A stretch of DNA of 32,000 nucleotides, taken from Propionibacterium ruminifibrarum (GTDB lineage: Bacteria > Actinomycetota > Actinomycetes > Propionibacteriales > Propionibacteriaceae). The stretch covers positions 1-32,000 of the forward strand of contig NZ_OMOH01000009.1 of assembly GCF_900289195.1 (NCBI RefSeq), written 5' to 3'. The position numbers and the translations under genes are program-made. The notes beneath the pieces are model-generated. The model searched no databases, was not told where the DNA came from, and was given only the letters and a program-made list of their open reading frames with translations. Positions 1 through 28,124 of the stretch are shown here, in pieces. How positions within the stretch are numbered: position 1 is the stretch's first letter; each line of letters opens with the position of its first letter.

Positions 1-1190
1 CATGGACCCACCACTACAACTACCATCGACCCCACACCGCCTGCGGCGACCAGCCCCCGGCCACACGCCTCCACACCCACGTCGACAACGTCATGACCAA
101 CTACAGTTAGGGGCCCCGCCTCCAGGTACCCCCTGCGCAGCGTGGTGCTCTCGAAATCGTTCCCGTTTCGTGCATCGAAGGCAGCGGCCAGGTCGAGGGC
201 CTGGCCCGACAGCTCGTCGTAGAGGGCCTGGTCGATGACGATCTCCTCGCCGGTGCGGGTGAGCAGACACTGGCCGGCCATGCCCTCGGCGAGACAGGCG
301 CCGACCAGGCGGGCGGTCGCTGCCCGCAGGTTCATGCTGACGCTGGGCACGTCGAAATCACGCACCTGCTCCCAGCGGTGGGCCATCAGTTCCAGACCCC
401 GGGACAGGGCGCCGGTGCGGGCGCACAGCAGGATGTTCCTCGCCACGTCCGAGGCGCGCCCCTCTTCGTCGCGGATCTCACGCCAGGCGCGCAGATGGTA
501 GTCGGCGGCCTCGTCCATCCGGCCCAGCTCGGCGGAGCACACCGCGGCCAGGCTCAGCGAGGAGCCCGGCTCCTGGGCGCACGTGGCGTCGCCGCGCAGG
601 GCGGGGGCGAGAAGCTCCAGGGCCCGCTCGTACTGGCCCTGGTCGTACCAGTAGCCGGCCTGGCCGCGGGACGAGCAGACCTGGCAGTCGCTCAGGTCGC
701 AGCGGGGCAGGGCGGTCCAGGCGGCGAACTCGTCCGCTGCGCTGTCGTTACCGCGAGTGGACGAGGCGAGCTTGTAGGCACAGTGGGCGACCGGTTCGGG
801 GCCGATTCCGGCCGCCGCGTAGCGCCGCCGCATATCTGCCAGCAGCGCCTCGATCTGGTCGAGCGGGATCTGCGGGTAGGCCGTGGCGTGATCGACCATC
901 CACTTGTTGCTCCACAGAATGCGGTGGCGGTAGCGGTCGGTGAGGGCGGGCGAGTCGGCGTCGTAGCGCTGGACGAGCCAGGCGAACGGCACGAAGGCCT
1001 CCGAGACGCGACCGCCGAAGACGAGGGCCGAGACGAACGCCAGGCGCATGGCGATACCCATACCCTCATCGCCGATATCATCTGCCATTTCGACGGCCTG
1101 CCGCAGCGGCGCGATCCGCTCTGCGTAGGGGCGCCGGATCACCGCGTCGTGCAGCTGGATGATCCGGTCGCGGATGTCCTCGTCGCTCAT
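1..1190 (-). CDS. TPR-like helical protein with CX4CX2C motif; third gene of the HSP90-paralog operon (3' end at or beyond the window edge, uncertain)
   Basis: This minus-strand frame is absent from the supplied track because it has no stop inside the window. ATG is at 1190-1188, 5 nt after an AGGAGGA Shine-Dalgarno (1196-1202), and 22 nt downstream of the stop (1213-1215) of the preceding gene. Hand translation reads MSDEDIRDRIIQLHDAVIRRPYAERIAPLRQAVEMADDIGDEG... and stays open to position 3. It contains RCDLSDCQVC and a TPR-like segment GYWYDQGQYERALELLAPAL. Codon style collapses below about position 110, so the true end is unclear. Confidence 0.55.
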   Translation of the reverse strand, partial: MSDEDIRDRIIQLHDAVIRRPYAERIAPLRQAVEMADDIGDEGMGIAMRLAFVSALVFGGRVSEAFVPFAWLVQRYDADSPALTDRYRHRILWSNKWMVDHATAYPQIPLDQIEALLADMRRRYAAAGIGPEPVAHCAYKLASSTRGNDSAADEFAAWTALPRCDLSDCQVCSSRGQAGYWYDQGQYERALELLAPALRGDATCAQEPGSSLSLAAVCSAELGRMDEAADYHLRAWREIRDEEGRASDVARNILLCARTGALSRGLELMAHRWEQVRDFDVPSVSMNLRAATARLVGACLAEGMAGQCLLTRTGEEIVIDQALYDELSGQALDLAAAFDARNGNDFESTTLRRGYLEAGPLTVVGHDVVDVGVEACGRGLVAAGGVGSMVVVVVGP

Positions 1191-1212
1191 GGGCGTCCTC
1201 CTGGGGGGTGTG

Positions 1213-3021
1213 TTACGACGTCTGGTCGTCGTTCCAGTAGCGTATGGCCTCCTCGTGACGGCCGTGCTCGGCGAGCCAGTCGCGGCCTGCGGCCAGCACC
1301 TGTCGGCGTGTCCGCTCGTCACCGCCGTGTTCGGCCAGCTGCAGGCAGCGGCCAAGGGCGGTGAAGGCGTCCTGCTCCATGTCGAGCTGCAGACACAGCC
1401 GGGCGCGCAGCCAGAAGCCGTCCAGGGCCAGGGCCCGGTCGCCGTGCTCGGCGGCCTGCTCCGGCAGCCCGACGAGCCAGCCGATGGCGTTCTCGTAGGC
1501 CTTGGAGGCCGCAATCAGCTTGGCCTGCTCAATCTTGACGCTCAGGACGAGCATCTCCCCATCGACCCCGCTGCTGCGGGCCAGTTCCGGGTTCGTGGCG
1601 AGGGTGTCACGCAGCTGCTCGGCGATCTTCAGGGCCCGCTCCTGCATCTGGGCGGCCTCCTTCATGCCGGTGCAGATGGCGATGGCCCAGGCCCGCCGGC
1701 GGGTCATCTCAAGGACGCGCAGGCCATCCTGGTCCTGGTGGGCCAGCCTGGCGGCCCTCTCGAAGGCCCGGTCGGACTCGGCGGCGTCAGTGGGCATGAT
1801 CGCCTCGCCGACGAGCTCCCACATGACGGAGGCGCGGCCGGGATCACCGAGCTGCTCGGCGTCCTGCGCCGCCCCGCGGGCCAGGGCGCAGGCCCGGTCG
1901 GCGTGCTCGAGCTCGTAGTGGACGCGCGCCCCCATGTCGCACAGGGCCCAGTGGGCCTCGATGAGGTCCTCGCCGATGATGAGGTGGCGGGGCCCGTCGA
2001 CGGTTGCGAGCAGGGCCAGTGCCTCGTCCACGACCGCGGCGCCCTCCTCGGCCCGGTCCTGGTTGAGCAGGCGCAGGGCGAGGCCCTTGAGCGCGTCCAC
2101 CTCGTACTTGGTGACCCCGGAGGAGTGGGCAGCGGCGACGGCCTCACGGATCGCCTGCTCGGCGCCGACCGGATCGCCCAAGTCCTCCAGCTGGTCGGAG
2201 AGCCGGTGCATGACCCTGGTCAGCTCCACCGTCTCGCCCATCGAGCGCTGGCGGTCCGCCTCGGCGCGCAGGACGGCGACGGCCTGGGCGCCCTGGCCGG
2301 TCTGCTGGGCCAGCACCGCGCGGCGCCGCACCTGCATGGAGCGCAGCATGGGGAACTCGTCGTCGAGCAGATAGGCGTCGACGATGTCGGGCAGGTCGAG
2401 AACGCTGTCGAAGGCCGGGCCGAGGCCGAGGATCGCAAACCCCATCCGCAGGCGGGTCATCGGCTCGCTCGTCACGTCCACGGCCAGGGCGCGCAGTTCG
2501 GCGAGGCGGGCGCGCACCGCGTCGAGGTCATCGGCGGCGATCCAGCTGCGCGAGATCGAGGTGACCAGGGCGCGCGGGTCGCCGGTGGCGCGGATCCGGT
2601 CAAGCAACTCGCCGCCGCGCACCGGGTCGTTGTCCAGTTCGACAGCGAGCATGTGCTCCAGGTCGAGCGCGCGGGCGGTGTCCCCGGCGCGGGTGAACAG
2701 GTCGATCGCGGTCTCGATACGCTCCAGGTCACGGGCGTCGGTGGCCGCGTAATCGGCGATCTCGGTGTCCATCTCGAGGCAGGCCAACGCATGGAGCAGC
2801 CCGGGGTCCCCGGTGACCCTGGCCCATTCGATGGCCCCGTCGCGCAGTTCCTCCCAGCGTGCGATGACGGCCTGCTGGACATCATGGCCGCCCCAGCGGG
2901 TTGCGGTGATGAACAGTTCTGCGAGACGGCCGGCATCGGCCTGCGCCACCGCATCGAGAGGCGGGGCGAAGCGGTGCCGCGACAGGCCGCTGACCGGCCG
3001 GTGTGGGGTGTTCTCAGCCAT
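1213..3021 (-). CDS. large all-helical TPR-like repeat protein (602 aa), partner of the HSP90 paralog
   Basis: This is track ORF 1213..3162 trimmed to the internal ATG at 3021 (MAENTPHRPVSG...). That ATG overlaps the stop of the upstream HSP90-like gene (3014-3016) in the sequence ATGGCTGA. The longer N-terminal extension (MTNSSRPPPSRSTPVPCWPP...) is Pro/Ser/Thr junk lying inside the upstream gene. The protein is rich in Ala/Leu/Glu/Arg/Asp with repeated amphipathic-helix segments, e.g. ALKGLALRLLNQDRAEEGAAVVDEALALL. I recognise no catalytic motif. Confidence 0.7.
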   Translation of the reverse strand: MAENTPHRPVSGLSRHRFAPPLDAVAQADAGRLAELFITATRWGGHDVQQAVIARWEELRDGAIEWARVTGDPGLLHALACLEMDTEIADYAATDARDLERIETAIDLFTRAGDTARALDLEHMLAVELDNDPVRGGELLDRIRATGDPRALVTSISRSWIAADDLDAVRARLAELRALAVDVTSEPMTRLRMGFAILGLGPAFDSVLDLPDIVDAYLLDDEFPMLRSMQVRRRAVLAQQTGQGAQAVAVLRAEADRQRSMGETVELTRVMHRLSDQLEDLGDPVGAEQAIREAVAAAHSSGVTKYEVDALKGLALRLLNQDRAEEGAAVVDEALALLATVDGPRHLIIGEDLIEAHWALCDMGARVHYELEHADRACALARGAAQDAEQLGDPGRASVMWELVGEAIMPTDAAESDRAFERAARLAHQDQDGLRVLEMTRRRAWAIAICTGMKEAAQMQERALKIAEQLRDTLATNPELARSSGVDGEMLVLSVKIEQAKLIAASKAYENAIGWLVGLPEQAAEHGDRALALDGFWLRARLCLQLDMEQDAFTALGRCLQLAEHGGDERTRRQVLAAGRDWLAEHGRHEEAIRYWNDDQTS

Positions 3022-4819
3022 CTCGGGCTTCCAGGGCGCTGGTGAGCAGGGCGAGGAAGGAGTGGTCGACGGCCGCCAGGTCGGCGGCGCGCAGCCGGTG
3101 TCCGGCGGCCAGCAGGGCACGGGCGTAGAGCGACTCGGCGGCGGGCGCGACGAGTTCGTCATCGCCCAGGTCGAGCACCCTGCGCACCAGTTGGTTGTCG
3201 TCGTTGAGCAGCAGCCGGGGCCGGGTCGGGGCAGGACGCATCGTCGCCAGCAGGGCCGCCCAGGTCTCGTCGGCCCCGGCGGCGACCTCGTCGGAGGCGG
3301 CCGCGGCGCGGGACCGTTCGTCGTCGAGGTAGAGCGCGGGCATCGAGGCGGGCGCGAAGGCGCGCAACTCGACGTCGACGTCGAGCCGCGTCAGCACGTG
3401 GCGGACGCGTTCCAGGCCGGGGCCGGCGGCCCGCAGCCGCTCCTCGGGGACGGCGCGGATGCTGGCGTCCAGGTCGTTCACGGACAGGGGTTTGGTCTGC
3501 AGGCCCGACATGACCTGCGGGGCGCGCAGCGCGAGCTCGGTGTCGTAGACGTAGCCGCCGTTGAGGATGTCGATGCCCTGGGCCGCGCCGACCGCGGCCA
3601 CCTGGTGGTAGTCCTCGACGGTGCGGGCGACGTGGACGACGTCGGTGCGGCCGGCCAGCTCGGGCAGGGTCGCCTCGCCGGTGTTCGTCTCGAAGCGGAA
3701 GGCCGGCAGCAGGGTCTCGAAGAGCTCGTCGTCGTCCAGGGCCATCGCCTTGGCCGCCACGGCGTGCACCGACAGGAACTGGCCGATACGGGCCCGGTCG
3801 GTGGCGGCCAGGCGCAGGAGCCAGCGGCGGATCTGCTCGCCGAGCGCGGCCCGGACCGTCTCGAGCAGGTCGTCCTCGTAGAGGCCCTCGCGGCTGGCGG
3901 TGGGCGTCAGGCGGGTGGAGTCGACGACGGCGCGGGCGAAGAAGGCCCAGTCGGGCAGCAGGCCCGGCACGTTCTCGGAGGCGAGCATGCCGTGCAGGTA
4001 GACGCGGTGGCCGCCGCGCGAGCCGGCCTGCGCCTGCTGGCCGAGGATGACGACGACACCATCCAGGCCGGCCTCGGGCACGGCCACGGGGAGGGTGGCG
4101 AAGGGTTCGACGCCCAGCTGCTGGCGGGCGAGGTTCTCGCACTCGCGCCGGCGGGCGCGCCCGGCCAGGCGCCACGGCGGCGTGGTGGGTGCGACCGGCG
4201 ACGTCGCACCGGCGCCCCGGGCGCTGACGATGCGGTAGGGAAGATAGGAGCCGAAGGTCTTGGCCAGTTCGGTGACGCGGGCGGCGGTGAGCCAGTGCGC
4301 GGTGCCGGTGGTGGGACGCAGGGTGACGCAGGTGCCGGGGCCCTTCGCGAGCCAGGCGGCGCGTTCGTCGTCGGCGACGGGCGGGTCGGCCATTTCGTGG
4401 GTGCCGTCCTCGTGGCCGATCCAGCGGACCAGGTGCCCGTCACCCTTGCGCGTGAGCACCTCGACCTGGTCGGTGACGACGAAGCAGCTGAGCAGGCCGA
4501 TGCCGAAGCGCCCCAGCATCGTCTCGTCGTGGCCGCGCTTGGAGGAACCCCCGATGGTCGCCAGGAAGGTGCGCACGTCGTCCTCGTCGAGCCCGACGCC
4601 CGAGTCGAGGCAGTGCATGCGGCCGTCGGCCGAGACGTCCGAGCCGACGAGCATGATGCCGGGGCGCCGGTCGCCGGGCCGTGGGTCGGCGGCCGTCAGG
4701 GCATCGACGCCGTTCTGCAGGAGCTCGCGCACGAAGATGCGCGGGCTCGAGTAGAGATTGTGGCTGAGCAGGTCGACCAGACCGTGCAGATCGACCCGGA
4801 AGGCGTCGTTGCTGGACAC
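3014..4819 (-). CDS. HSP90-family protein (divergent HtpG paralog, GHKL ATPase)
   Basis: The N-terminus aligns by eye with the Hsp90 N-domain: FRVDLHGLVDLLSHNLYSSPRIFVRELLQNGVDAL versus the [29 protein letters not shown] type. Bergerat motifs are present: ExxxNxxD (about 4700-4730), DSGVGL (about 4606) and GRFGIG (about 4513). There is also a middle-domain SRE motif (TASREGLYED). The track start is ATG 4861, but its first 14 codons have poor GC3. GTG 4819 (VSSNDAFRVD...) lies 7 nt after a TAGGCT -10-like hexamer, so I prefer the GTG start. The start remains uncertain. Confidence 0.85.
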   Translation of the reverse strand: MSSNDAFRVDLHGLVDLLSHNLYSSPRIFVRELLQNGVDALTAADPRPGDRRPGIMLVGSDVSADGRMHCLDSGVGLDEDDVRTFLATIGGSSKRGHDETMLGRFGIGLLSCFVVTDQVEVLTRKGDGHLVRWIGHEDGTHEMADPPVADDERAAWLAKGPGTCVTLRPTTGTAHWLTAARVTELAKTFGSYLPYRIVSARGAGATSPVAPTTPPWRLAGRARRRECENLARQQLGVEPFATLPVAVPEAGLDGVVVILGQQAQAGSRGGHRVYLHGMLASENVPGLLPDWAFFARAVVDSTRLTPTASREGLYEDDLLETVRAALGEQIRRWLLRLAATDRARIGQFLSVHAVAAKAMALDDDELFETLLPAFRFETNTGEATLPELAGRTDVVHVARTVEDYHQVAAVGAAQGIDILNGGYVYDTELALRAPQVMSGLQTKPLSVNDLDASIRAVPEERLRAAGPGLERVRHVLTRLDVDVELRAFAPASMPALYLDDERSRAAAASDEVAAGADETWAALLATMRPAPTRPRLLLNDDNQLVRRVLDLGDDELVAPAAESLYARALLAAGHRLRAADLAAVDHSFLALLTSALEARDG

Positions 4820-4826
4820 GCGACCA

Positions 4827-4832
4827 AGCCTA
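4827..4832 (-). promoter_or_regulatory. candidate -10 hexamer TAGGCT, 7 nt upstream of GTG 4819 (possible leaderless HSP90-paralog mRNA)
   Basis: The minus strand reads TAGGCT-TGGTCGC-GTG. This fits the actinobacterial TANNNT -10 pattern. There is no Shine-Dalgarno between the hexamer and the start. Confidence 0.35.
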
Positions 4833-4995
4833 TGACCTGCCTCAGCACCCCCGCCTGGCAAACCGGAACCCCCTGAGCCCGTGGTTCAGGGACACCCGGG
4901 GAATCTCCCCGTCCCAGGGGCCTGCCGGGGGGCTCCAGGCCGTCTGGGAACCAGCCTGTGACAAGGCCAGTCCTCCACCGGCCCGGCTGGGCTTA

Positions 4996-5001
4996 TAGCC
5001 T
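4996..5001 (+). promoter_or_regulatory. candidate -10 hexamer TAGCCT, 6 nt upstream of the malQ GTG (possible leaderless mRNA)
   Basis: The sequence is TAGCCT-AGAGAC-GTG(5008). The in-frame TAG at 4996-4998 leaves GTG 5008 as the only possible start. No Shine-Dalgarno is present. Confidence 0.45.
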
Positions 5002-5007
5002 AGAGAC

Positions 5008-6936
5008 GTGAGTTGGAACGAGAATGCTCACGCCGGTGGTCCCAGCGGCCAGGGTGCGGGCGCGGAGAGCATCGGGACACGTCGGCGTCGTGATGACCTT
5101 CTGAGGCGTCTGGAACCGTTGGGCGTGGCCGGCAGCTACCTCAGCGCGCGCGGCACCGTCGTCGAGGTCCCCACCGCCACGCTCGAACTCGTCAACGACC
5201 ACTTCCACGAGGGCCTGCCCCCCGGTATCGGTGAACCGCTCGTCTGCACCCCGGGCCGCTACCACCCCGAACTCTTCGGCGACCTCGTCCTCGAGAGCGG
5301 GCACCACTACCAGGCGCACGGGGTCGTCGACGTGCCCGGCTACCACGTCCTCCGCACCGACACCGGTCAGCGCCGCTTCGTGATCGCGGCCCCCGAGCAC
5401 CTGCGCACACCGGAGCGCAGCTGGGGCTGGCAGGTTCAGCTGTACGCAGCCCGGTCGAGGGACTCCTGGGGCATCGGCGACTTCCGAGATCTGGGCCGCA
5501 TCTGCCGCATCGCCCGCGCCCAGCACGCCTACTGCGTCCAGGTCTCGCCGGTGCACGCCATCGCCCCGGTCAGCCACCCGCAGGACTCCCCGTATTCACC
5601 GGCCAGCCGCCAGTTCCTCAATCTTCTGCACATCGCGCCCGGCAACGCCCCGGGCGCCGAACGCGTCGACCTGTCCGACCTGTCGGAGGCCGGGCGGGCC
5701 CTCAACGAGGACCGTCTCATCAACCGGTCCGCGGTGTGGTCTCTCAAGAAGGAGGCCCTGCTGCGCATCTGGAACGTCGTGCGCGCCGAGGAGGACATCG
5801 AGTACCTCGACTACTGCCGGCACCGGGGCCGGGCCCTTCACGAGTTCGCGGTCTGGTGCGCCATCGCCGACGAACTCGACAACTCCAACTGGCAGCAGTG
5901 GCCCGACGAACTGCACCGCCCGAGTTCACCGGCGGTGCGCCGCTGGGCAGACGAGCACGCCGACAAGGTCGCCTTCTACTCGTGGTGCCAGTGGGTCGCC
6001 GAGGTCCAGTACGCCGAGGCCTGCACCTGCGGGGTCGACGTCGTCGCGGACCTCGCGGTGGGCTTCGACCAGGGCAGCGAGGACGCCTGGGCCTTCCAGG
6101 ACTCGCTGTGCTTCGACTTCGAGATCGGCTGCCCACCCGATACCTACAACATCGAGGGCCAGCGCTGGGGCCTGCCGCCGTTCAACCCCCAAAGACTCAC
6201 CCGCGCCGACTTCGGGCCGTTCATCGAGATGGTCCACGAGGGGCTGCGCCACGCCAAGGCGCTGCGCATCGACCACGTCATGCAGCTGTGGCGGCTGTAC
6301 TGGATACCGAAGGACAGCACGGCCGCCGACGGCGTCTACGTCGACTACCCGGTGCACGCGCTGCTCGCCATCCTCAGGCTAGAGGCCATGCGCGCCGGCG
6401 CCTGGATCGTCGGCGAGGACATGGGGACCGTCCCGCCCGGTGTGCGCGAGTCGATGGCCGACATCGGCATGCTCGCCAACCGCTCCGCCATGCGGGCCGA
6501 CACCGACGACTTCCCCGAGCTGGGCGTCGGCACCTCATCGACCCACGACCAGGTCACCATCGCAGGTCTCATCACCGGCGCCGACGTCGAGGCCCTGCGG
6601 CACATCGGCAAGAACGCCGACTGGGACCAGATCGAACACACCCGCCGCTCCCTGGCCGCCGATGCCGGTATCGACCCCGACAAGCCCTGCCAGCAGATCG
6701 ACGGGCAGGAGATCCATGACGCCGTCCTGGCCCGCTATCGCCGCCTCAGCTCCGCGCCGAGCAGGGTCGTGCTGGCCGTCCTGGACGACGCGGCCATGGT
6801 GCGCGAGCGCCCGAACATGCCCGGCACCGTCGGCGTCTACCCGAACTGGCGACTGGCCCTGCCCGAACCGGTCGGCGCCACGATGCTGAGCCCGATGACA
6901 CGCGACCTCGTGCAGCTGCTCGGTGAGAACCGCTGA
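5008..6936 (+). CDS. malQ: 4-alpha-glucanotransferase (amylomaltase, GH77)
   Basis: 642-aa ORF with GH77-typical segments: WGIGDFRDL, PYSPASRQFLN, ALRIDHVMQLWRLYWIP, GEDMGTVP and PNWR near the C-terminus. The N-terminal domain (LLRRLEPLGVAGSYLSARGTVVEV) resembles that of actinobacterial MalQ. Confidence 0.9.
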   Translation: MSWNENAHAGGPSGQGAGAESIGTRRRRDDLLRRLEPLGVAGSYLSARGTVVEVPTATLELVNDHFHEGLPPGIGEPLVCTPGRYHPELFGDLVLESGHHYQAHGVVDVPGYHVLRTDTGQRRFVIAAPEHLRTPERSWGWQVQLYAARSRDSWGIGDFRDLGRICRIARAQHAYCVQVSPVHAIAPVSHPQDSPYSPASRQFLNLLHIAPGNAPGAERVDLSDLSEAGRALNEDRLINRSAVWSLKKEALLRIWNVVRAEEDIEYLDYCRHRGRALHEFAVWCAIADELDNSNWQQWPDELHRPSSPAVRRWADEHADKVAFYSWCQWVAEVQYAEACTCGVDVVADLAVGFDQGSEDAWAFQDSLCFDFEIGCPPDTYNIEGQRWGLPPFNPQRLTRADFGPFIEMVHEGLRHAKALRIDHVMQLWRLYWIPKDSTAADGVYVDYPVHALLAILRLEAMRAGAWIVGEDMGTVPPGVRESMADIGMLANRSAMRADTDDFPELGVGTSSTHDQVTIAGLITGADVEALRHIGKNADWDQIEHTRRSLAADAGIDPDKPCQQIDGQEIHDAVLARYRRLSSAPSRVVLAVLDDAAMVRERPNMPGTVGVYPNWRLALPEPVGATMLSPMTRDLVQLLGENR

Positions 6937-7040
6937 AGCGCCACGGTCCCGTCCCGCGGCTGGCTGTCACGATCGGTGTCCGCCGGTCACGGGCTCGTGG
7001 CGGCTCCGGGGAAAGAATCTAGCGTTGTGCCGACGACAGA

Positions 7041-7077
7041 CGGGTGTTCCCGGGCAGTTCCTGCCCGGGAACACCCG
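7041..7077. terminator. bidirectional hairpin terminator between convergent malQ and the 257-aa gene
   Basis: Perfect 17-bp inverted repeat CGGGTGTTCCCGGGCAG / CTGCCCGGGAACACCCG with a 3-nt spacer. It lies 105 nt after the malQ stop and 33 nt after the stop of the minus-strand gene. Neither side has a U-tract. Confidence 0.6.
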
Positions 7078-7109
7078 CTCATCCGGTCTGTTGGACGATC
7101 ACCGAGGAT

Positions 7110-7883
7110 TCATGGCGTGCGGACGGTGACCTCACCGGGGTGGGCAGCGATCACCCGCGCCTTGTCCGTGGCGGCCAGGAGCTCGGGCGCCAGCTGATGT
7201 TCGACGGACAGCGCGAAGCCGACCCTTCCGCCCTGCTGCCTCACCAGATCGATCAGCCGTTCGAGTACTTCCTCACGTCCACCGATCAGGTCGATCCGCT
7301 CGGGAGCCGCCGTCGTGAACAAGTCGACCTCAAGGTCTTCGTCGAAGTGGATGAGAAGACTTGCCACGAGCCGGTCGACGTCGTGGCTGCCCAGGACCAG
7401 CCAGGAATCCGGCGATATCGTCGAGGTCACCTTGGTGACGATCTCCTCATGGCCCCAGCCGAGTCGCCATTGCAGTCCCAGCTGGCCGCTTGCCGGCCCG
7501 GGATGCACCACGATCCCCTCGGGATCGTCGTCGAGGGCGGCAAACATGATCGTCACGAAATCGTCCAGATCGGTGTCGATCGTCCATGCCCCTTGGACCC
7601 GGGCGAAGTAATCATCGACGGCATCGCGTTCCATGACCATGACGAATTCGACCCGCCCGCTGAACTCGGCGAACAGTTCCGCGGCCGTCCGCCGGGGATC
7701 GGTGATCGAGGTCGGGGCATTGGGGAGGGGTTCCCCGTCGGAGAAACGCGCCTTCTGAACTCGGCCATGGTCGTGGATGATGACCAACCGGGGAGCAGCC
7801 TTCCCGGAATGCAGGATGAGGTCCTGGGCGGCGCGCCATTGATCGACGTCGATGTCAAGCATCTGCGCATTCGCGTGCAACAT
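7110..7883 (-). CDS. hypothetical acidic protein (257 aa), last gene of the GH35/ABC sugar operon
   Basis: Clean ORF with coding-like composition. ATG 7883 lies 8 nt after the SD core of GAAAGGAA, which overlaps the GH35 stop. The gap to the upstream gene is 12 nt. I recognise no family motif. Confidence 0.7.
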   Translation of the reverse strand: MLHANAQMLDIDVDQWRAAQDLILHSGKAAPRLVIIHDHGRVQKARFSDGEPLPNAPTSITDPRRTAAELFAEFSGRVEFVMVMERDAVDDYFARVQGAWTIDTDLDDFVTIMFAALDDDPEGIVVHPGPASGQLGLQWRLGWGHEEIVTKVTSTISPDSWLVLGSHDVDRLVASLLIHFDEDLEVDLFTTAAPERIDLIGGREEVLERLIDLVRQQGGRVGFALSVEHQLAPELLAATDKARVIAAHPGEVTVRTP

Positions 7884-7895
7884 TGATGGTTCCTT

Positions 7896-9980
7896 TCAGT
7901 CCAGGGCGATGCGGAAGGCGTGGACGGTGTAGGGCGGGAGTTCGCACATGAGGGGTCCCGTGCTGGACAGCTGTTCACCCGACCACGCATCCTGGCATGC
8001 CACGATGGGGCTCTCGGCCGTGACCGTAGCGGTCTGCGGCTCGTCCGTCGGGTTCGCGATGAAGACGACGACATCCTTCGGGTTCGTCGAATTCAGATGG
8101 ATCGTCGAGCGCAGCAGCGGGTTGTCGACTGTCACCGGGGTTTCCCCGAGATCGGCCAGGACCTGGCCCAGTACAGCTGCCATGTCACCGGGCGACACGA
8201 CGACGTGAACGCTTCCCTCGCCGAGCCTCGCCGATCCCGCCGAATTGCCGCCCAGGGCGTCGGAAAGGATCGTGCACGGCTCCATGTCGGCGCCAAGAGT
8301 CGGGATCGTGGGGCCGAGGATCAGCGTCCCACCTTGGCGAACGTAATCGACAAGGGTCTGCTGGGTCTGCGCAGAGAGGAACTCGAAGGTGGTGAGGACA
8401 ACGATCCTGCGCTGCGCGAGCTGCTCGAGATCTGCCTCCGTGTCGCTGATGACGAAGCCGGCACGTGACTGCTCCAAGTTCTCGTACCATGCCCCGAACC
8501 AGTCGCGCTTCGCCAGCTGGACGGGCTGCTGGAATCCGATGTCGCTCTCATCGACGGTGAGAATGTTCGGGTACTCGCTGAACGTGCAGGGGGTCTCCAG
8601 GAAATCGCCCGGGAACGACACGAGTACGCTGGCGGCCTCCAGCCTGTCATAGTCACGATTCGCCAGCAGGACGACCGGGGCGAGAAGATCCATGTGCTGC
8701 CAGTCGAGGCGGTCGAGCATTCTGTTGGCCTGCCCGAAGACGTGGGCCTTGTCCTCGCGCACGGTGCCGTCACGACGGATCGGGGAGTCGAGCCACCTGT
8801 CGCGTTCGACGAGCATGTACCTGCTGAACCCCTTGATGCCATGCATCAGTGCAGCCTTGGTGACGAATTCCTCATCGCGCAGGTCCCCGGGGTTCAGGTA
8901 CCAGGCCCAGACACCTGCGATGAACTCCGGGATGTATGGGTACCGGCTCGACCCGGACACATAGCTCGTGACCGTTTTTACGTGCTGGAAGAGTTCCTTG
9001 CGGGAATAGACATCGAAGCCGACGAAGTCGACAACTCGCTCCAAGGCGATGAGATTGAATGGCGTCGTGAAGTTGGACGAGGCACCGCCCGGCCCAAGCG
9101 GGTGCGGGTAGTTGTGGAAGAGCGGGATCGAGGCCAGGCCACGCTCACGGAGCATGTCGGCGAGCCGGGCAATCGAGTCGACCAGATAGCTCTCCCGGTA
9201 CTCCGCCCAGTCCAAGTAGACCGGCAAGTCGCCGGGCTGCCGTGCGCAGAACTTGCGCGGCGGATCCACGTCCTCCAAGGCGTCGTACCGGGTACGGTGG
9301 GCCTTGGAGATCTCGGCCAGGGAACCGTACTTCTCGGCGAGGAACGCGCGATACTTCTCGATCGAGGTCTCGGAGTAGTCCGACGAATAGTAGTTGAGTC
9401 CGAAGAAATAGGCCATCTCGTTGTCAACCTGGCAGGCGACGAGCCCGCCCTTCGGGTAGGCGTGCCGGGCGAGGATGGGGCAGATCGCGTCATACCACAA
9501 CGCGGTCTCCTCGAAGAACTTGTCAGCGGCGTAGCTCAGGGCCGGGATCGGGCGGGGCGCCTGGGTGAGGACCACTCGCGTACCGCGTGCATTGCGGGCG
9601 TGCAGCGACTCATCAGCGAGGATACGCTGCGGGTACCCGAATCCGGTGAGCTCGGAATTGATTTGCGGCCCCGGCCGCACGACGATGCGAAGACCCTTCT
9701 CCTCACAAAGACTCAGGAAGGCATCAATGTCGTTCGCGGGGTTTACCTCACCGAAATCAAACCTGCCCCGTTCCAGCTCATGGACCTCCCACGGGATGTA
9801 GATGGAGATCATGCGATAACCCATGGCCACGACGGTGTCAAGAATCTCTGACCATTTCTCGGGGTCAAGCCGCCAGTAGTGGACGGCACCGCCGTAGAGC
9901 GCCCCGGGCTCACCCTCGATCCAGAATCTCTGGTTCGCCACCCCGAGCTGAGGCGTCTTTTCCAATGGAACGGTTCCCAT
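7896..9980 (-). CDS. glycoside hydrolase family 35 beta-galactosidase
   Basis: The N-terminal TIM-barrel pattern is typical of GH35: GGAVHYWRLDPEKWSEILDTVVAMGYRMISIYIPWEVHELERGRFDFG...LRIVVRPGPQINSELTGFGYP. The acid/base region is QVDNEM. The nucleophile-like region is YPYIPEFIAGVW. The start is moved from track GTG 9995 to ATG 9980 (MGTVPLE), which has GAAAGGAA 6 nt upstream. Confidence 0.8.
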   Translation of the reverse strand: MGTVPLEKTPQLGVANQRFWIEGEPGALYGGAVHYWRLDPEKWSEILDTVVAMGYRMISIYIPWEVHELERGRFDFGEVNPANDIDAFLSLCEEKGLRIVVRPGPQINSELTGFGYPQRILADESLHARNARGTRVVLTQAPRPIPALSYAADKFFEETALWYDAICPILARHAYPKGGLVACQVDNEMAYFFGLNYYSSDYSETSIEKYRAFLAEKYGSLAEISKAHRTRYDALEDVDPPRKFCARQPGDLPVYLDWAEYRESYLVDSIARLADMLRERGLASIPLFHNYPHPLGPGGASSNFTTPFNLIALERVVDFVGFDVYSRKELFQHVKTVTSYVSGSSRYPYIPEFIAGVWAWYLNPGDLRDEEFVTKAALMHGIKGFSRYMLVERDRWLDSPIRRDGTVREDKAHVFGQANRMLDRLDWQHMDLLAPVVLLANRDYDRLEAASVLVSFPGDFLETPCTFSEYPNILTVDESDIGFQQPVQLAKRDWFGAWYENLEQSRAGFVISDTEADLEQLAQRRIVVLTTFEFLSAQTQQTLVDYVRQGGTLILGPTIPTLGADMEPCTILSDALGGNSAGSARLGEGSVHVVVSPGDMAAVLGQVLADLGETPVTVDNPLLRSTIHLNSTNPKDVVVFIANPTDEPQTATVTAESPIVACQDAWSGEQLSSTGPLMCELPPYTVHAFRIALD

Positions 9981-10000
9981 GTTATTTCCTTTCACTTCTC

Positions 10001-10972
10001 TTATTTCTTGCTGCCCAGCGCCACGGCAAGGATGATGATGATCCCCCGGACGACCTGCTGCTGCGGGGAACTGAGACCCGCCAGAATCAGCCCATTGTTG
10101 ATGAGGCCCATGAAGAGTGCACCGAACACGGTCCCGAGGACTGAGCCACGACCGCCTGCCAGGGCCGTGCCGCCAAGGATGACGGCCGCGATGGCATTCA
10201 TCTCGTCACCCTGACCCCACTGATACCGCCCGGATTGCAGCCGCCCGGCGTACAGCATTCCGCCGAGCGCAGCGACGACCGAGGAGATCAGCATGACCAA
10301 GAATTTTGTTCGGACAACACTGATCCCGGTGTAAATCGAAGCAGTCGGATTGGCACCGACCGAGATGACATGACGTCCGAAGCGGGTCTTCTTGAGAACA
10401 AATGCACCGCAGCCCGCTATGATGAGGAACCAGATCACCAGACCCGGCACCGGGCCGATGTCACCGGAGCCGAAAGCCATGTTGTAGCCCTGCTTCAGGA
10501 TGGGCTGGGGCGCAGAATCAGTGACCCATTGGGCCAGGCCGAACGCGATCCCCATCATTGCCAGAGTCACCAGGAATGACGGGATCTTCACGAAGGCCAC
10601 CAGACTTCCGTTGACGAGACCGATGAGCATCCCGACCATGAGCCCCGCGACGATTCCGGCAAGAATGCCCCAGTGGGAAATCGCCATGGCAGTGACCACG
10701 GAAACGAGTCCGGCAACCGAGCCGACCGACAAATCGATTTCGGCATCGGCGATGACGAAAGTCATCCCCACCGCGATCACGCCGACGATGGCGCTCTGCC
10801 GGAGGATGTTCATGAGGTTTCCACTGGTGAGAAAACCTCGGTCGTCAAGCGCGACAGCGAACAGGATGAAGGTGACGGCGAACGCCAGGTATATGATGTA
10901 CTGCCCAAGGTTCACCCGGCTCAACAGGCCCTTGGCCCGGGAATGCGTTCCCTCGATTCGTAATTCGGTCAT
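10001..10972 (-). CDS. sugar ABC transporter permease (RbsC/CUT2-type)
   Basis: 323-aa polytopic membrane protein with RbsC-like segments: IDLSVGS, GRHVISVGANPTASIYTGI, ILGGTALAGGRGSVLGT. The start overlaps the ATPase stop (ATGA at 10969-10972). Confidence 0.9.
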   Translation of the reverse strand: MTELRIEGTHSRAKGLLSRVNLGQYIIYLAFAVTFILFAVALDDRGFLTSGNLMNILRQSAIVGVIAVGMTFVIADAEIDLSVGSVAGLVSVVTAMAISHWGILAGIVAGLMVGMLIGLVNGSLVAFVKIPSFLVTLAMMGIAFGLAQWVTDSAPQPILKQGYNMAFGSGDIGPVPGLVIWFLIIAGCGAFVLKKTRFGRHVISVGANPTASIYTGISVVRTKFLVMLISSVVAALGGMLYAGRLQSGRYQWGQGDEMNAIAAVILGGTALAGGRGSVLGTVFGALFMGLINNGLILAGLSSPQQQVVRGIIIILAVALGSKK

Positions 10973-12480
10973 TGCTCAACTCCTTGCACCCACATCTCCA
11001 ATGTGGTTTCGTCCCGCACCGCATCCGCCGGAAGACTCCGGATGATGGAGCCACCTCGCATGATGAGATACCGATCACTCATGGCGATGAGTTCCTGGTA
11101 TTCACTCGAAACAACAAGGACGGCACCGCCGTTTCGAGCAAACTCCCTCACCTGTTTGACAATTTCTGATTTCGTTCCGATGTCCACACCCGCGGTCGGC
11201 TCGTCCATGAGCAGCAGACGGGGACCGACCCCCAGCCACTTGCCGATCACCACTTTCTGCTGGTTGCCACCCGACAGCACCTCGACTGGCAGGTTCGGAC
11301 CGGCGCCCCTGATGCCGTAGGAACCGATCAGCTGAACTGCGCGATCCCGTTCGGCGGCCGCGGAGAGCAGACCGCCGCGCAGCACCGCCGAGAGATCCGG
11401 AAGAACGAGGTTCTCCTGGACGGAGTGCTTGAGTATGAGCCCTTGACGGCGCCGGTCCTCGGGAATCAGCACAACGCCTGCTGCGATGGCATCCCTCGGA
11501 CTCCTCGGCGACATGGGTTGACCGTCGAGGACGATACTGCCCCTGGTTGTCAGATTGATTCCGAACAAGGCCTCCAAGAGCTCGGTCCGGCCGGATCCCA
11601 TGAGCCCTGCCACCCCGATGACCTCGCCGGCGTGCACCTCGAAGGAGACATCGTGCAGCTTGCGCTGCGCACTCACGCCGGTGGCTTTCAGCAACACGTC
11701 GCCGCATTGTCCCGAGGAACCAGCAGCGGTGAGGGCCACGGCTTTCCCTGCAATCCCCCGGACGATCTCCTCCTGGGTGATCTCGGAGATCTGCTTGGTG
11801 AGCAGATTCGATCCATTGCGAAGAATCGTTATCCGATCCGCTATCTCGTAGATCTCCTCCATGCGGTGGGATATGTAAATGATGCCGATGCCCTGCTCTC
11901 GCAGGTTCCGCAGCAGCTCAAAAAGCCGATCGGCCTCCTTCCTGGCCAATGACGCGGTGGGCTCGTCCATGATGAGCACCCGAGCTTCCCCCCGTAAGGC
12001 CTTGGCGATTTCGGTGAGCTGCCAGTAGGCCGTGCTCAGACTCGCCAGCTCGGCACGCGGGTCCAGGTCGACCTGCATCCGCCCCAATATCTCCCGGGCG
12101 CCGGAAATCATCTCGGCATCCCGGATGAGCATTGCCGAACGCGGCTCATCGTTGAGGTAGATGTTCTGCGCAACCGTCAGGGAAGGGACTAGGGAGAACT
12201 CTTGGAAGACCATCCCGATGCCCTGACGCCGCGCATCGGCGTATGTGTTCAGTTGGGCCGGCCTCCCCTGGATCTCGATCGTTCCAGCATCTTTCTGGTA
12301 GACGCCTTGGAGGATCTTCATGAGTGTTGATTTACCGGCCCCATTCCCACCCGCCAGCGCGTGTATCTCCCCTGCTCTCACCTCAAAGCCGGCATCATTG
12401 AGGACCTGCACGCCGTTGAAACTCTTGCAGATGCCTGACATCCTGATCAAGGCCGGCTCGGTGCAACCGGACACGGTCAT
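10969..12480 (-). CDS. sugar ABC transporter ATP-binding protein (duplicated ABC domains, RbsA-like)
   Basis: First half: Walker A GGNGAGKST, signature-like region and Walker B LIMDEPT. Second half: degenerate P-loop GLMGSGRTE, LSGGNQQKV and LLMDEPT. The start is taken as ATG 12480 (MTVSGCTEPALIRMSGI...), which forms an ATGA overlap with the SBP stop. The longer track start lies inside the SBP gene. Confidence 0.9.
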   Translation of the reverse strand: MTVSGCTEPALIRMSGICKSFNGVQVLNDAGFEVRAGEIHALAGGNGAGKSTLMKILQGVYQKDAGTIEIQGRPAQLNTYADARRQGIGMVFQEFSLVPSLTVAQNIYLNDEPRSAMLIRDAEMISGAREILGRMQVDLDPRAELASLSTAYWQLTEIAKALRGEARVLIMDEPTASLARKEADRLFELLRNLREQGIGIIYISHRMEEIYEIADRITILRNGSNLLTKQISEITQEEIVRGIAGKAVALTAAGSSGQCGDVLLKATGVSAQRKLHDVSFEVHAGEVIGVAGLMGSGRTELLEALFGINLTTRGSIVLDGQPMSPRSPRDAIAAGVVLIPEDRRRQGLILKHSVQENLVLPDLSAVLRGGLLSAAAERDRAVQLIGSYGIRGAGPNLPVEVLSGGNQQKVVIGKWLGVGPRLLLMDEPTAGVDIGTKSEIVKQVREFARNGGAVLVVSSEYQELIAMSDRYLIMRGGSIIRSLPADAVRDETTLEMWVQGVEQ

Positions 12481-13640
12481 GCTTCCAGCGCCTGCCGGAC
12501 TTCTTCGGGGGGATCGGTGTGATAGACGCTCCGCCACGCATCAGCAACGTTGTCCTTGGTCACCGCCAGCGGGCTCAGCGCGATGAAGGCCGGAATTGAC
12601 TGACCAAGCAGGGCCTTGGCCGCTGCATTTGCCTCAGTGACCCCGGCGTCATAGGGACGCTGTGCTCCGAGTCCGCAGACATACTGACCCTGGGCCATTG
12701 CGATGGCAACGTTCTTGCCAAGATCCTCGGAGGCCAGTCCAAGATCTGTCCGGCTTGCCGAGCGCGCCGCAGCGATGACCCCCTCAGCAGGGACGTCCCA
12801 CACGGCCCAGATGCCGTTCAGATCGGCGTTCTGGTTGAGGAGGGCATCTGCTTGTTTCTGAGCCGAGCCCGCGAGATCTGAACCACTGATGCCTCGCTCC
12901 GCAATGATCTGGATGTCCGGGTAATTGCTCGTGAGCGTCTCCTTGAACCCCTGGTAACGCTGGTTCGTCACGAAGTAATCGGCTTCGTAGTAGATGGCCG
13001 CGATCTTCCCCTGCCCACCGAGGGCCTTCGCCATGAGATGCGCCGAGATCGCTCCGTTCCCGTAGTTGTCAGATGAGACGACACAGGCATAGTCCGGACC
13101 TGCGGTGAAACCGTCCGGACAGTTGTCCATGAACACGACCTTGACGCCTTGGTCCACGGCCATTCGATATGCCGACGCGGTCGCGACAGGATCGGTGGGA
13201 ATGGAGATCAGAATATCCGGTTTCTGGGCCAGGATCGTCTCGACGTCGGACACCTGCTTGCTGGGGTCCATGTTCGCATCCGTGGTCGACGTGATCTTGA
13301 TGCCGAGCTCGTTGAATCGTGACGTGAGGCCGGCGATCTGCGCCGCCGACCAGTCATCACCGCTCGTGTGCATCGCGATTGCAGCAGTCGCCCCCATCGC
13401 CTTCACATTGGCGATGTCGTCCTCGGTGAGGTCAACCTCCGAAGCGGCAGCGGCACTCTCGCCATGCGGCCCCGTTGCGCTCACCGCCGATTCCAGCTGA
13501 CGGATCGCCTCGTCGGCCTTCGCGTTGATCTCCGCATTCGTCGCCGCTGCCGTGCTCTCACCCGAAGACGTACATCCTTGCAGGAACAACGCGCTGATCG
13601 GAATACCAGCCGCAGCAAGCAGGACAGTTCGTCGTTGCAT
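12477..13640 (-). CDS. sugar ABC transporter substrate-binding lipoprotein (periplasmic-binding-protein type I)
   Basis: Signal peptide plus lipobox: MQRRTVLLAAAGIPISALFLQGC. The body is PBP1-like (KPDILISIPTDPVA, VKVVFMDN). ATG 13640 is preceded by GAAGGAG 8 nt upstream. Confidence 0.85.
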   Translation of the reverse strand: MQRRTVLLAAAGIPISALFLQGCTSSGESTAAATNAEINAKADEAIRQLESAVSATGPHGESAAAASEVDLTEDDIANVKAMGATAAIAMHTSGDDWSAAQIAGLTSRFNELGIKITSTTDANMDPSKQVSDVETILAQKPDILISIPTDPVATASAYRMAVDQGVKVVFMDNCPDGFTAGPDYACVVSSDNYGNGAISAHLMAKALGGQGKIAAIYYEADYFVTNQRYQGFKETLTSNYPDIQIIAERGISGSDLAGSAQKQADALLNQNADLNGIWAVWDVPAEGVIAAARSASRTDLGLASEDLGKNVAIAMAQGQYVCGLGAQRPYDAGVTEANAAAKALLGQSIPAFIALSPLAVTKDNVADAWRSVYHTDPPEEVRQALEA

Positions 13641-13700
13641 CGTCAATCTCCTTCGATCCACGTTGACTCACGGTTGACGTTCCCGTCCCAATCCCATGGT

Positions 13701-13737
13701 TGTGAACGTTTCGTCATCACATAGTGTGAACGTTTCG
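13701..13737. promoter_or_regulatory. tandem 13-bp repeat TGTGAACGTTTCG (13701-13713 and 13725-13737); candidate operator pair for the adjacent LacI-family regulator
   Basis: Two identical 13-mers, 24 bp start to start, lie 61-97 nt upstream of the SBP ATG. Each is part of an imperfect 15-bp palindrome TGtGAAcGtTTCgCA. On the minus strand a CACTAT -10-like hexamer lies between them. Confidence 0.45.
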
Positions 13738-14021
13738 CATACCCGTGTCAAGCGCTGCTCCCGCTCTGATCAGTGCCGCTGATGCGGGTCCAGATCGACC
13801 CCGGGCGAGGCATCGCATCCTCTCCCCTGGTGGGCAGCGGGATCGGACAAGAAGGGGCGCGGTACGTGACGTGAACCCCACCCGGCACCCGGCGCAGTGG
13901 TGTGATGCCTGGTTACCGGCGGGCACCACGCCCGCCCCGTCAACCCGGCTCGCTCAGCGGGCTTCCCGTTGCTGTACGCAGGCGGACCGTAACGCGGTGC
14001 CCCGGGTCACCGACCGGGAAC

Positions 14022-28085: not shown

Positions 28086-28124
28086 CCGTCTGTTCTCCTT
28101 CGGGTTCGGGCGAGCACCATCCAA

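Follow-up and report, generated by a model that had tools for sequence, protein, structure and literature searches.

A divergent HSP90-family ATPase and a coupled helical-repeat protein form a conserved genomic unit in Propionibacterium ruminifibrarum and other bacteria

The first 32,000 nucleotides of contig NZ_OMOH01000009.1 of Propionibacterium ruminifibrarum (assembly GCF_900289195.1; this whole stretch is here called the window) carry, on the minus strand of positions 1-4861, three tightly packed open reading frames (ORFs). Gene 1 encodes a divergent HSP90-family ATPase, and genes 2 and 3 encode helical proteins. An earlier note on this DNA had proposed that they make up either a dedicated HSP90-paralog/tetratricopeptide repeat (TPR) adaptor machine or a conflict module. 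The comparisons reported here uphold the pairing of the HSP90 paralog with gene 3 as a genomic unit but not gene 2 as a partner. Since the partner and its start/stop overlap are conserved across lineages, a dedicated module of HSP90 paralog and TPR-like partner is well supported as a genomic unit. As to what the pair does, we favour a dedicated HSP90 paralog with its own adaptor or co-chaperone, to which we assign a probability of about 0.45.

Layout of the operon

The operon and the element that interrupts it are arranged as follows.

3014-4819, minus strand: gene 1, HSP90-family ATPase, 601 amino acids from GTG 4819
3014-3021, minus strand: 8-nucleotide overlap of genes 1 and 2, ATGGCTGA, read directly (gene 2 ATG at 3021-3019, gene 1 TGA at 3016-3014)
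1213-3021, minus strand: gene 2, predicted all-helical TPR superhelix, 602 amino acids, ATG 3021, TAA 1215-1213
1191-1212, minus strand: 22-nucleotide spacer between genes 2 and 3, with AGGAGGA at 1202-1196, then gene 3 ATG 1190
106-1190, minus strand: gene 3 codons 1-362, conserved partner domain, predicted TPR-like alpha-solenoid
1-105, plus strand: terminal ~105 nucleotides of an IS481-family insertion sequence, transposase C-terminus on plus strand 3-104

The tight coupling that the earlier note had claimed for the three genes was confirmed on re-reading, including the coordinates, the overlap and the AGGAGGA spacer. The longest ORF of gene 1 spans 3014-4861 on the minus strand (615 amino acids from TTG 4861); the start at GTG 4819 is favoured by the family alignment and by the gene callers on identical contigs. 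Because the window and its twin contig both end inside gene 3, the complete operon was taken from relatives, in which it consists of the HSP90 gene, gene 2 (~602-610 amino acids) and gene 3 (974-975 amino acids), with a convergent acylphosphatase gene after it and a divergent GH77 gene upstream. In relatives L002 and L097 the same 8-nucleotide overlap joins the HSP90 gene to gene 2, and in relative L098, which has no gene 2, it connects the HSP90 gene straight to gene 3. Genes 2 and 3 overlap by 4 nucleotides in L002, compared with the 22-nucleotide spacer of the window.

The HSP90 paralog and its partner are conserved together

Using the HSP90-paralog alignment we retrieved 80 loci from actinobacterial genomes, including Streptomyces, Micromonospora, Actinoplanes, Nocardia, Amycolatopsis and Cellulomonas. 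All 80 have an ORF of ~920-1000 amino acids directly downstream of the HSP90 paralog and on the same strand, and the first ~370 residues of these ORFs match the N-terminal domain (N-domain) of gene 3, with phmmer E values of 1e-34 to 1e-65. The start codon of the partner overlaps the HSP90 stop in 70 of the 80 loci. All-against-all clustering revealed that the partner is the sole family besides HSP90 common to all the genome loci, the other shared neighbours being local synteny among ~45 loci, mostly from Streptomyces. The flanks are housekeeping genes in stable synteny: Propionibacterium has malQ and acylphosphatase there, Listeria has fri, and the ~45 loci have flanks in common.

An HSP90 alignment, used as the query against a metagenome sample, gave 77 loci with room downstream, at 33-77% GC, and 70 of them carry the partner downstream. 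The length of the partner is ~350-390 amino acids in the low- and mid-GC loci and ~900-1000 in the high-GC loci, the ~600-residue TPR extension being seen only in high-GC, actinobacterial-type loci. Listeria monocytogenes lmo0942 belongs to NF010683 (799 bits), the NCBIfam family that also contains gene 1, and is followed by two N-domain-only partners of ~320 amino acids, lmo0941 and lmo0940. Paenibacillus has one partner of 353 amino acids, which overlaps the HSP90 gene by 4 nucleotides, and a locus from a metagenome-assembled genome (L094) has two partner copies of 369 amino acids. A contig of 50% GC (L096:1-13178) carries an HSP90 paralog, a Metallophos gene, nine tandem partner paralogs (367-388 amino acids) and an Endonuclease_NS gene. 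We take the ancestral unit to be, in all probability, the HSP90 paralog with a partner domain of ~350 residues.

In pairwise comparisons across 77 loci, HSP90 averages 69.6% identity, the N-domain 54.1% and the TPR module 39.2%, and the identities of the two partner regions correlate with that of HSP90 at 0.98 and 0.95, respectively. These correlations and this gradient indicate that the HSP90 paralog and the partner are co-inherited, under graded constraint. The conservation that the earlier note had asked for beside HSP90 paralogs was thus found for gene 3 (80/80 genome and 70/77 metagenome loci, Listeria and Paenibacillus). It had also asked whether both helical genes always co-occur and stay overlapped; the gene 3 N-domain is constant and its start usually overlapping, but gene 2 is not constant.

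Some loci have further neighbours. YbjN-domain genes flank the HSP90-partner pair in Sanguibacter (L093:3630-9085), and YbjN-like genes precede the partner gene of Actinomyces oris; the other 80 genome loci showed no such neighbours. In Listeria an SMI1/KNR4-family gene and a low-molecular-weight tyrosine phosphatase gene follow the partner genes (L088:8014-8760), and the ferritin gene fri lies divergently upstream of the operon. SMI1/KNR4 proteins are often encountered as immunity proteins. Both YbjN and SMI1/KNR4 were considered as core components and rejected as lineage-specific (Sanguibacter/A. oris and Listeria, respectively).

Gene 1 is a full-length HSP90 paralog distinct from HtpG

In profile searches gene 1 matched NCBIfam NF010683/PRK14083 ('HSP90 family protein') with 597 bits (cutoff 455), over residues 17-613 of 615 and profile positions 4-599 of 604. 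It failed the canonical HtpG model, NF003555 (123 bits against a cutoff of 371), to which only residues 20-403 could be aligned. These scores bear out the earlier view that the protein is clearly not canonical HtpG, and by its profile matches gene 1 classifies as a full-length member of the curated, unstudied NF010683 clade. The Bergerat-fold motifs and the middle-domain SRE arginine that the earlier note had pointed out are likewise present: gene 1 contains RELLQNGVDA, DSGVGL, GRFGIG, GPGT and TASRE, and the SRE arginine lines up with 'LSRE' in the catalytic loop of TRAP1. None of 16 diverse members aligned (down to 44% identity) departs from the Bergerat motifs, the G-T motif or the middle-domain R-E, so the ATPase appears to be under purifying selection. 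The closest solved structures, TRAP1, Hsp82 and HtpG, are matched only at E~1e-20, and none comes from the NF010683 clade itself. Compared with these solved relatives the lid segment of gene 1 is ~10 residues shorter, and its C-terminal third is divergent from that of canonical HtpG.

Gene 1 ends in ...LTSALEARDG, with no MEEVD-type anchor. The earlier note was right that this tail is absent, but the absence does not set the protein apart, since bacterial HtpG also lacks it; we know of no bacterial HtpG with an MEEVD tail. C-terminal tails are variable across 92 NF010683-type members. Those of actinobacterial paralogs (loci L006-L092) often end in ...(E/Q)EDG(R/K) after the last helix, and that of Listeria ends in ...MLRILEML. 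We considered the EEVD-like tail (...EDGR) as a docking anchor and set it aside, because the Shine-Dalgarno sequence of the overlapping partner gene falls at the same place and Listeria has no such tail.

Gene 1 has more than 5,000 homologues, and the ranked matches follow taxonomy, with identities of 76-100% in Propionibacterium, ~56% in other Propionibacteriaceae, ~53% in Cellulomonas, ~45% in Micromonosporaceae and, in a genome scan, 42-45% in Streptomyces. The Propionibacterium to which the window belongs is close to P. australiense. Two apparent HSP90-partner fusions were rejected as Rosetta-stone evidence: one (P0088, 948 amino acids) is a frameshifted gene call, and the extra part of the other (a 949-residue HSP90 in L054) is a Gly/Ser-rich low-complexity tail.

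The conserved partner domain is a predicted TPR-like solenoid

Residues 1 to ~360 of gene 3 were modelled with AlphaFold2 (AF2) from a 15-row alignment as a TPR/PPR-like alpha-solenoid with one small hairpin, at a predicted local distance difference test score (pLDDT) of 94.1 and a predicted template modelling score (pTM) of 0.90. Foldseek found only generic TPR/PPR solenoids for this model (best APC5, with a template modelling score, TM, of 0.6; also NOT10 and designed PPRs). The N-domain gave no Pfam, NCBIfam or PADLOC match above cutoff. TPR_16/TPR_7 matches stayed below threshold and occurred in 3 of 46 members, so that the profiles do not place it in the TPR family; against PDB sequences its profile matched designed helical proteins only, at E 4e-4 or weaker. 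By its model, the N-domain would be a TPR-type scaffold in its manner of working that lies outside any curated family.

In a cross-phylum alignment of 51 sequences the near-invariant positions are W93, K96, C169, C172, C204, P208, F338, D339, R341 and N342. The motifs map to the window, on the basis of this alignment, as follows.

900-914, minus strand: W93-x2-K96-W97 motif of gene 3
675-686, minus strand: C169/C172 of gene 3
579-581, minus strand: C204 of gene 3
162-179, minus strand: F338-D-x-R-N-G343 motif of gene 3

The CX4CX2C motif reported by the earlier note does exist, as RCDLSDCQVC (C164, C169 and C172), but only part of it is conserved: C169 and C172, together with a third cysteine 32 residues downstream, C204, are kept in 50 of the 51 sequences, and C164 is not. 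In the model C169/C172 and C204 sit at the starts of successive repeat helices, and it is plausible that the three cysteines share a metal or redox site.

Gene 2 is probably a local copy of the gene 3 TPR module

Over its whole length gene 2 matches residues 381-966 of intact gene 3 (34% identity, E 6e-79); from this alignment it seems to be a copy of the C-terminal TPR module of gene 3 that stands alone and is specific to the lineage. The description of genes 2 and 3 as two uncharacterised helical proteins therefore needs amending: neither falls into a characterised family, but the two are related, gene 2 being paralogous to the C-terminal module. Its AF2 model (pLDDT 89, pTM 0.83) is an all-helical TPR superhelix, for which the best Foldseek matches are the TPR domains of LGN/Pins (E 2.5e-9, target-normalised TM 0.6-0.7), which are peptide-binding. 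The earlier note could assign no motif to either partner; searches of characterised families likewise gave no match, and both proteins model as TPR-type solenoids. Pfam, NCBIfam and PADLOC gave no match to gene 2 above cutoff, and the intact gene 3 orthologue matches TPR_12 (32.2 bits, cutoff 30.1) and TPR_19 (27.9 bits, cutoff 25). TPR-family membership is thus found for gene 2 from its predicted fold and for the C-terminal module of gene 3 from profile matches.

An exhaustive profile search of 1.84 billion representatives returned only 21 relatives of gene 2. Most of them are the C-terminal halves of proteins of ~960-1000 amino acids, and therefore the standalone gene appears to be a local derivative. 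One further candidate, P0126 (4917 amino acids, with 26 matches to gene 2 residues 8-54), was rejected as a repetitive RTX/cadherin-like protein. Gene 2 was seen in only one Propionibacterium clade, and relative L098, with an HSP90 85% identical and the same flanks, lacks it. Its proposed role as a conserved HSP90 partner thus had to be given up, and gene 2 looks dispensable at this locus.

Gene 3 is interrupted and the partner cassette has diverged

The homology of gene 3 to intact orthologues (L097 and L002) stops after codon 362, at window position 106. Beyond this point plus strand 3-104 encodes WTHHYNYHRPHTACGDQPPATRLHTHVDNVMTNY, the C-terminal 34 residues of an IS481-family transposase. 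Annotated IS481-family transposases in 73 records match this peptide at 65-67% identity, and its rve-type C-terminal Y-N-x2-R-P-H motif runs into the element end, which places these terminal ~105 nucleotides in the IS481 family. An independent contig (L001) has the same junction for 25 nucleotides and then ends; contigs commonly end at repeats. From the end of homology at 106, the transposase in 1-105 and the L001 junction it therefore follows, as far as the sequence goes, that an IS481 element splits gene 3 exactly between the partner domain and the TPR module. Gene 3 does not merely run off the edge of the window: it is cut after codon 362, and window 1-105 is the IS481-family end.

A second break separates the window from relative L002. 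From 12000 to 3003 the two are 99-100% identical at the nucleotide level; in the comparison of window 106-3002 with L002:10001-12911, identity falls to 89% and then to 76% through gene 2, and is 86-91% in the gene 3 N-domain. The synonymous divergence (dS) is 0.010 in the HSP90 gene, 0.27 in gene 2 and 0.26 in the gene 3 N-domain, a ~25-fold jump at the HSP90/gene 2 junction, and the ratio of nonsynonymous divergence (dN) to dS is 0.62 for gene 2 and 0.37 for the gene 3 N-domain. All three genes are uniformly ~90% identical to those of P. australiense. This uniformity, set against the sharp break with L002, argues therefore that in the other lineage (L002) the partner cassette has been replaced by a much older allele, and the break suggests recombinational replacement of the cassette within a species.

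A candidate adaptor or co-chaperone pair

We infer from this distribution that the partner acts as an adaptor or co-chaperone of the ATPase and binds clients. Contact with the ATPase is most likely made by the conserved N-domain, and specificity most likely comes from variable TPR arrays or additional paralogs. The pair would be a two-component protein-handling machine, in which an NF010683 HSP90-family ATPase and a cognate helical-repeat partner are translated from one mRNA, with translational coupling fixing their ratio. The conserved solenoid domain of the partner, ~360 residues bearing W-x2-K-W, D-C-x2-C...C-x3-P and F-D-x-R-N, would dock on the ATPase dimer, and whatever the partner presents would be acted on as ATP drives the HSP90 clamp shut. 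The fast-evolving TPR superhelix of ~600 residues that is added in Actinomycetota would hold extended segments of clients or accessory proteins. In the Propionibacterium studied here the TPR module would also have been copied as gene 2 and inserted between the ATPase and its original partner, and the IS481 split would leave an N-domain-only product resembling the natural partners of ~350 residues in Listeria and Paenibacillus. A broader version, about which we are more doubtful, is that of an ancient bacterial Hsp90/co-chaperone system in several phyla, including Actinomycetota and Bacillota, in which the Cys-cluster domain docks on the ATPase while swappable, duplicable and fast-diverging TPR arrays or tandem paralogs choose the targets.

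That both partners model confidently as TPR-type peptide-binding solenoids supports a role as adaptor or co-chaperone, and the closest parallel is eukaryotic Hsp90 with its TPR co-chaperones (Hop/Sti1, PP5, Tah1, FKBP51/52 and CHIP). As in those systems, an HSP90-fold ATPase is paired with TPR-type helical-repeat proteins, whose repeat arrays resemble peptide-binding TPR superhelices (LGN/Pins is the best match of gene 2). The differences are that the paralog has no MEEVD anchor, that the conserved partner domain is a new family rather than a three-repeat carboxylate-clamp TPR, and that the putative partnership is hard-wired by an operon and translational coupling instead of a shared docking motif. 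Lacking the anchor motif, the pair falls outside the eukaryotic MEEVD/TPR-clamp system. To our knowledge, most descriptions of bacterial Hsp90 have it work without co-chaperones of its own. Gene 1 shares with canonical HtpG (hsp90A) the N-terminal ATPase, middle and C-terminal architecture, a similar size, the catalytic motifs and the arginine, and departs from it in the profile score, the lid and the C-terminal third described above. Canonical HtpG collaborates with DnaK, and papers on it name no TPR partner or dedicated partner gene (e.g. PMC9478669).

Also comparable, and possibly including NF010683, are the HtpG groups B and C ('ancient bacterial Hsp90 paralogs'), which like gene 1 are long-branch paralogs that can coexist with canonical HtpG; Streptomyces coelicolor, for example, has two copies (Chen et al. 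2006, PMC1525184; Press et al. 2013, PMC3708813). These groups are uncharacterised (PMC1525184, PMC3708813), and long-branch bacterial Hsp90 paralogs have been set aside in comparative studies (PMC3708813). Unlike the present analysis, both papers treat the HSP90 gene only, set the groups aside and describe no partner gene (PMC1525184, PMC3708813). A review gives no particular function of HtpG in a streptomycete (PMC3603443). The literature mentions lmo0941 solely as a 'hypothetical protein' that is under selection (PMC6901971) and lmo0942 solely in lists of genes (PMC10393277). Full-text literature searches found no description of the HSP90-paralog/partner pair. The HSP90 clade is already catalogued; for the partner family we found no curated model and, apart from these mentions, no literature.

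Several observations weigh against the adaptor or co-chaperone pair. Synteny and coupling are proof of co-expression, not of contact. The paralog has no EEVD-like anchor of any kind, and the short acidic tails of Actinomycetota may simply mirror the Shine-Dalgarno sequence of the partner. No partner was found within 7 kb in 7 of the 77 metagenome loci, and the 1011-residue partner of A. oris (L089:4325-9042) has no HSP90 gene within 6 kb. A scan allowing up to 3 mismatches found no HAIR or CIRCE heat-shock operator upstream of the operon, so nothing visible there appears to connect it with the classical stress regulons. A fast-evolving TPR module and the nine-copy tandem array of L096 are less usual in housekeeping co-chaperones than in genes for recognition or conflict; gene 2, in addition, combines its dN/dS of 0.62, and one block of 60 codons with a dN/dS near 2, with the abrupt allelic replacement at its junction with the HSP90 gene.

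These last features would suit a conflict or immune module, in which the TPR-like proteins would be diversifying non-self sensors and the HSP90-like GHKL ATPase the response switch. Evolution is 3-4 times faster in the TPR module than in the ATPase, the identity of 99-100% upstream drops to 76-89% exactly at the start of gene 2 as dS goes from 0.010 to 0.27, gene 2 (dN/dS 0.62) is present or absent among close relatives, and Listeria lmo0941 has been flagged as under selection (PMC6901971). Some neighbourhoods also fit: the nine L096 paralogs are flanked by the Metallophos phosphoesterase and Endonuclease_NS genes, Mrr_cat and SLFN_AlbA_2 lie near Cellulomonas loci, and toxin-antitoxin genes lie near the A. 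oris locus. More distant pairs of an HSP90-like 'ATP-binding protein' followed by a TPR protein occur on plasmids of Xanthomonas vasicola (L099:4947-9170) and Pseudanabaena (L100:4950-9813), and the paralog profile finds their ATPases at E 1e-66 and 1e-90. Unlike the pair described here, that of Pseudanabaena has TIR, DEAD/DEAH helicase and vWA genes as neighbours. The TPR proteins of the plasmid pairs have no detectable homology to the partner domain (no hmmsearch match), and the Xanthomonas protein, considered as a distant homologue, was rejected at an hhalign probability of 4%.

Against a conflict module, the great majority of loci carry no effector domain, and the pair is their only conserved unit. 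In PADLOC-DB 2.0 gene 1 showed generic similarity in the N-terminal GHKL core (TmtA and a type II restriction enzyme, at most 35 bits) and genes 2 and 3 matched nothing. This similarity to GHKL/sacsin-type ATPases (BbrUII/HgiDII enzymes and PADLOC TmtA) is weak and confined to an ATP-binding core of ~100 residues; unlike the defence ATPases of this type, gene 1 scores 20 bits where the cutoff is 550, has a full HSP90 middle domain, and has no nuclease or effector fused or adjacent. No relatives were found on IMG/VR viral contigs, and the few records labelled 'phage' or 'plasmid' that gave matches look like chromosomal fragments or megareplicons. The pair is inherited vertically in a clock-like manner between stable core-genome flanks. 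Moreover, dS rises along with dN at the junction, which suggests that a diverged allele was imported and that positive selection is not the whole cause. With no effector, core-genome synteny and no PADLOC match, a defence role is weaker than an adaptor or co-chaperone role, and we consider it unlikely.

The helical-repeat protein might instead be the obligate client or the regulated output of the ATPase, either a solenoid that needs its own HSP90 to fold or assemble, or a Cys3 metal/redox sensor that adjusts the ATPase when metal or oxidative stress occurs. A chaperone with a dedicated client would fit the strict 1:1 coupling and the co-inheritance equally well, the three cysteines persist across phyla at the starts of successive repeat helices (50/51 sequences), and the Listeria operon adjoins fri (ferritin/Dps) and a HesB-type gene. 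That neighbourhood, however, is not common to other lineages, and in the L096 array CxxC and W-x2-K-W are kept by only 2 of the 9 copies, whereas 7 keep F-D-x-R-N; with CxxC lost from seven of the nine paralogs, the cysteines are not essential to the function of the family. Helical repeat proteins, moreover, generally fold without ATP-dependent help. We regard a client or sensor as a long shot. It is highly improbable that unrelated genes share the operon by chance: the literature offers no direct functional or interaction data for any member, but the pairing and its start/stop overlap persist at ~26% HSP90-paralog identity and in 150 of 157 sampled loci while the other neighbours all change.

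Being conserved, coupled and co-inherited across phyla, the partner gene is a concrete candidate for a bacterial Hsp90 partner. The pair is present in the genetically tractable Listeria monocytogenes (lmo0942-lmo0941-lmo0940) and Streptomyces, and its natural variants are ready experiments: partners with or without a TPR array, the split version of the window, the duplicated TPR module and the nine-copy array. If the ancient co-chaperone system were real, it would constitute a programmable bacterial Hsp90 adaptor system and overturn the view that bacterial Hsp90s have no co-chaperones; a conflict module would represent a new ATPase-plus-sensor architecture on the HSP90 fold.

Genomic context of the window

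Upstream of the operon lie the following features, identified from the ORF map and from Pfam matches of the neighbours.

4820-5007, no strand assigned: intergenic region between the operon and the divergent GH77 gene, presumed promoter region
5008-6936, plus strand: GH77 4-alpha-glucanotransferase gene, divergent from the operon

Promoter and terminator scans were both empty, with no sigma-70-like consensus promoter in 4820-5007. Neither tRNA genes nor Rfam matches occur in the window. At 7110-7883 on the minus strand, between the GH35 and GH77 genes, an ORF of 257 amino acids without a Pfam match is called and conserved in all the Propionibacterium relatives examined. The stretch 7000-14000, occupied by a GH35 beta-galactosidase and sugar ABC transporter cluster, has a GC content of 60-64%, compared with 70-74% in 1-7000, and the cluster may be of horizontal origin. 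The rest of the window includes genes for the PntAB transhydrogenase, a LacI regulator and a DsbA-like protein, and at 23682-28124 (minus strand) a protein of 1480 amino acids with two BcrAD_BadFG ATPase stretches and DUF2229, of the coenzyme A (CoA)-enzyme-activase type.

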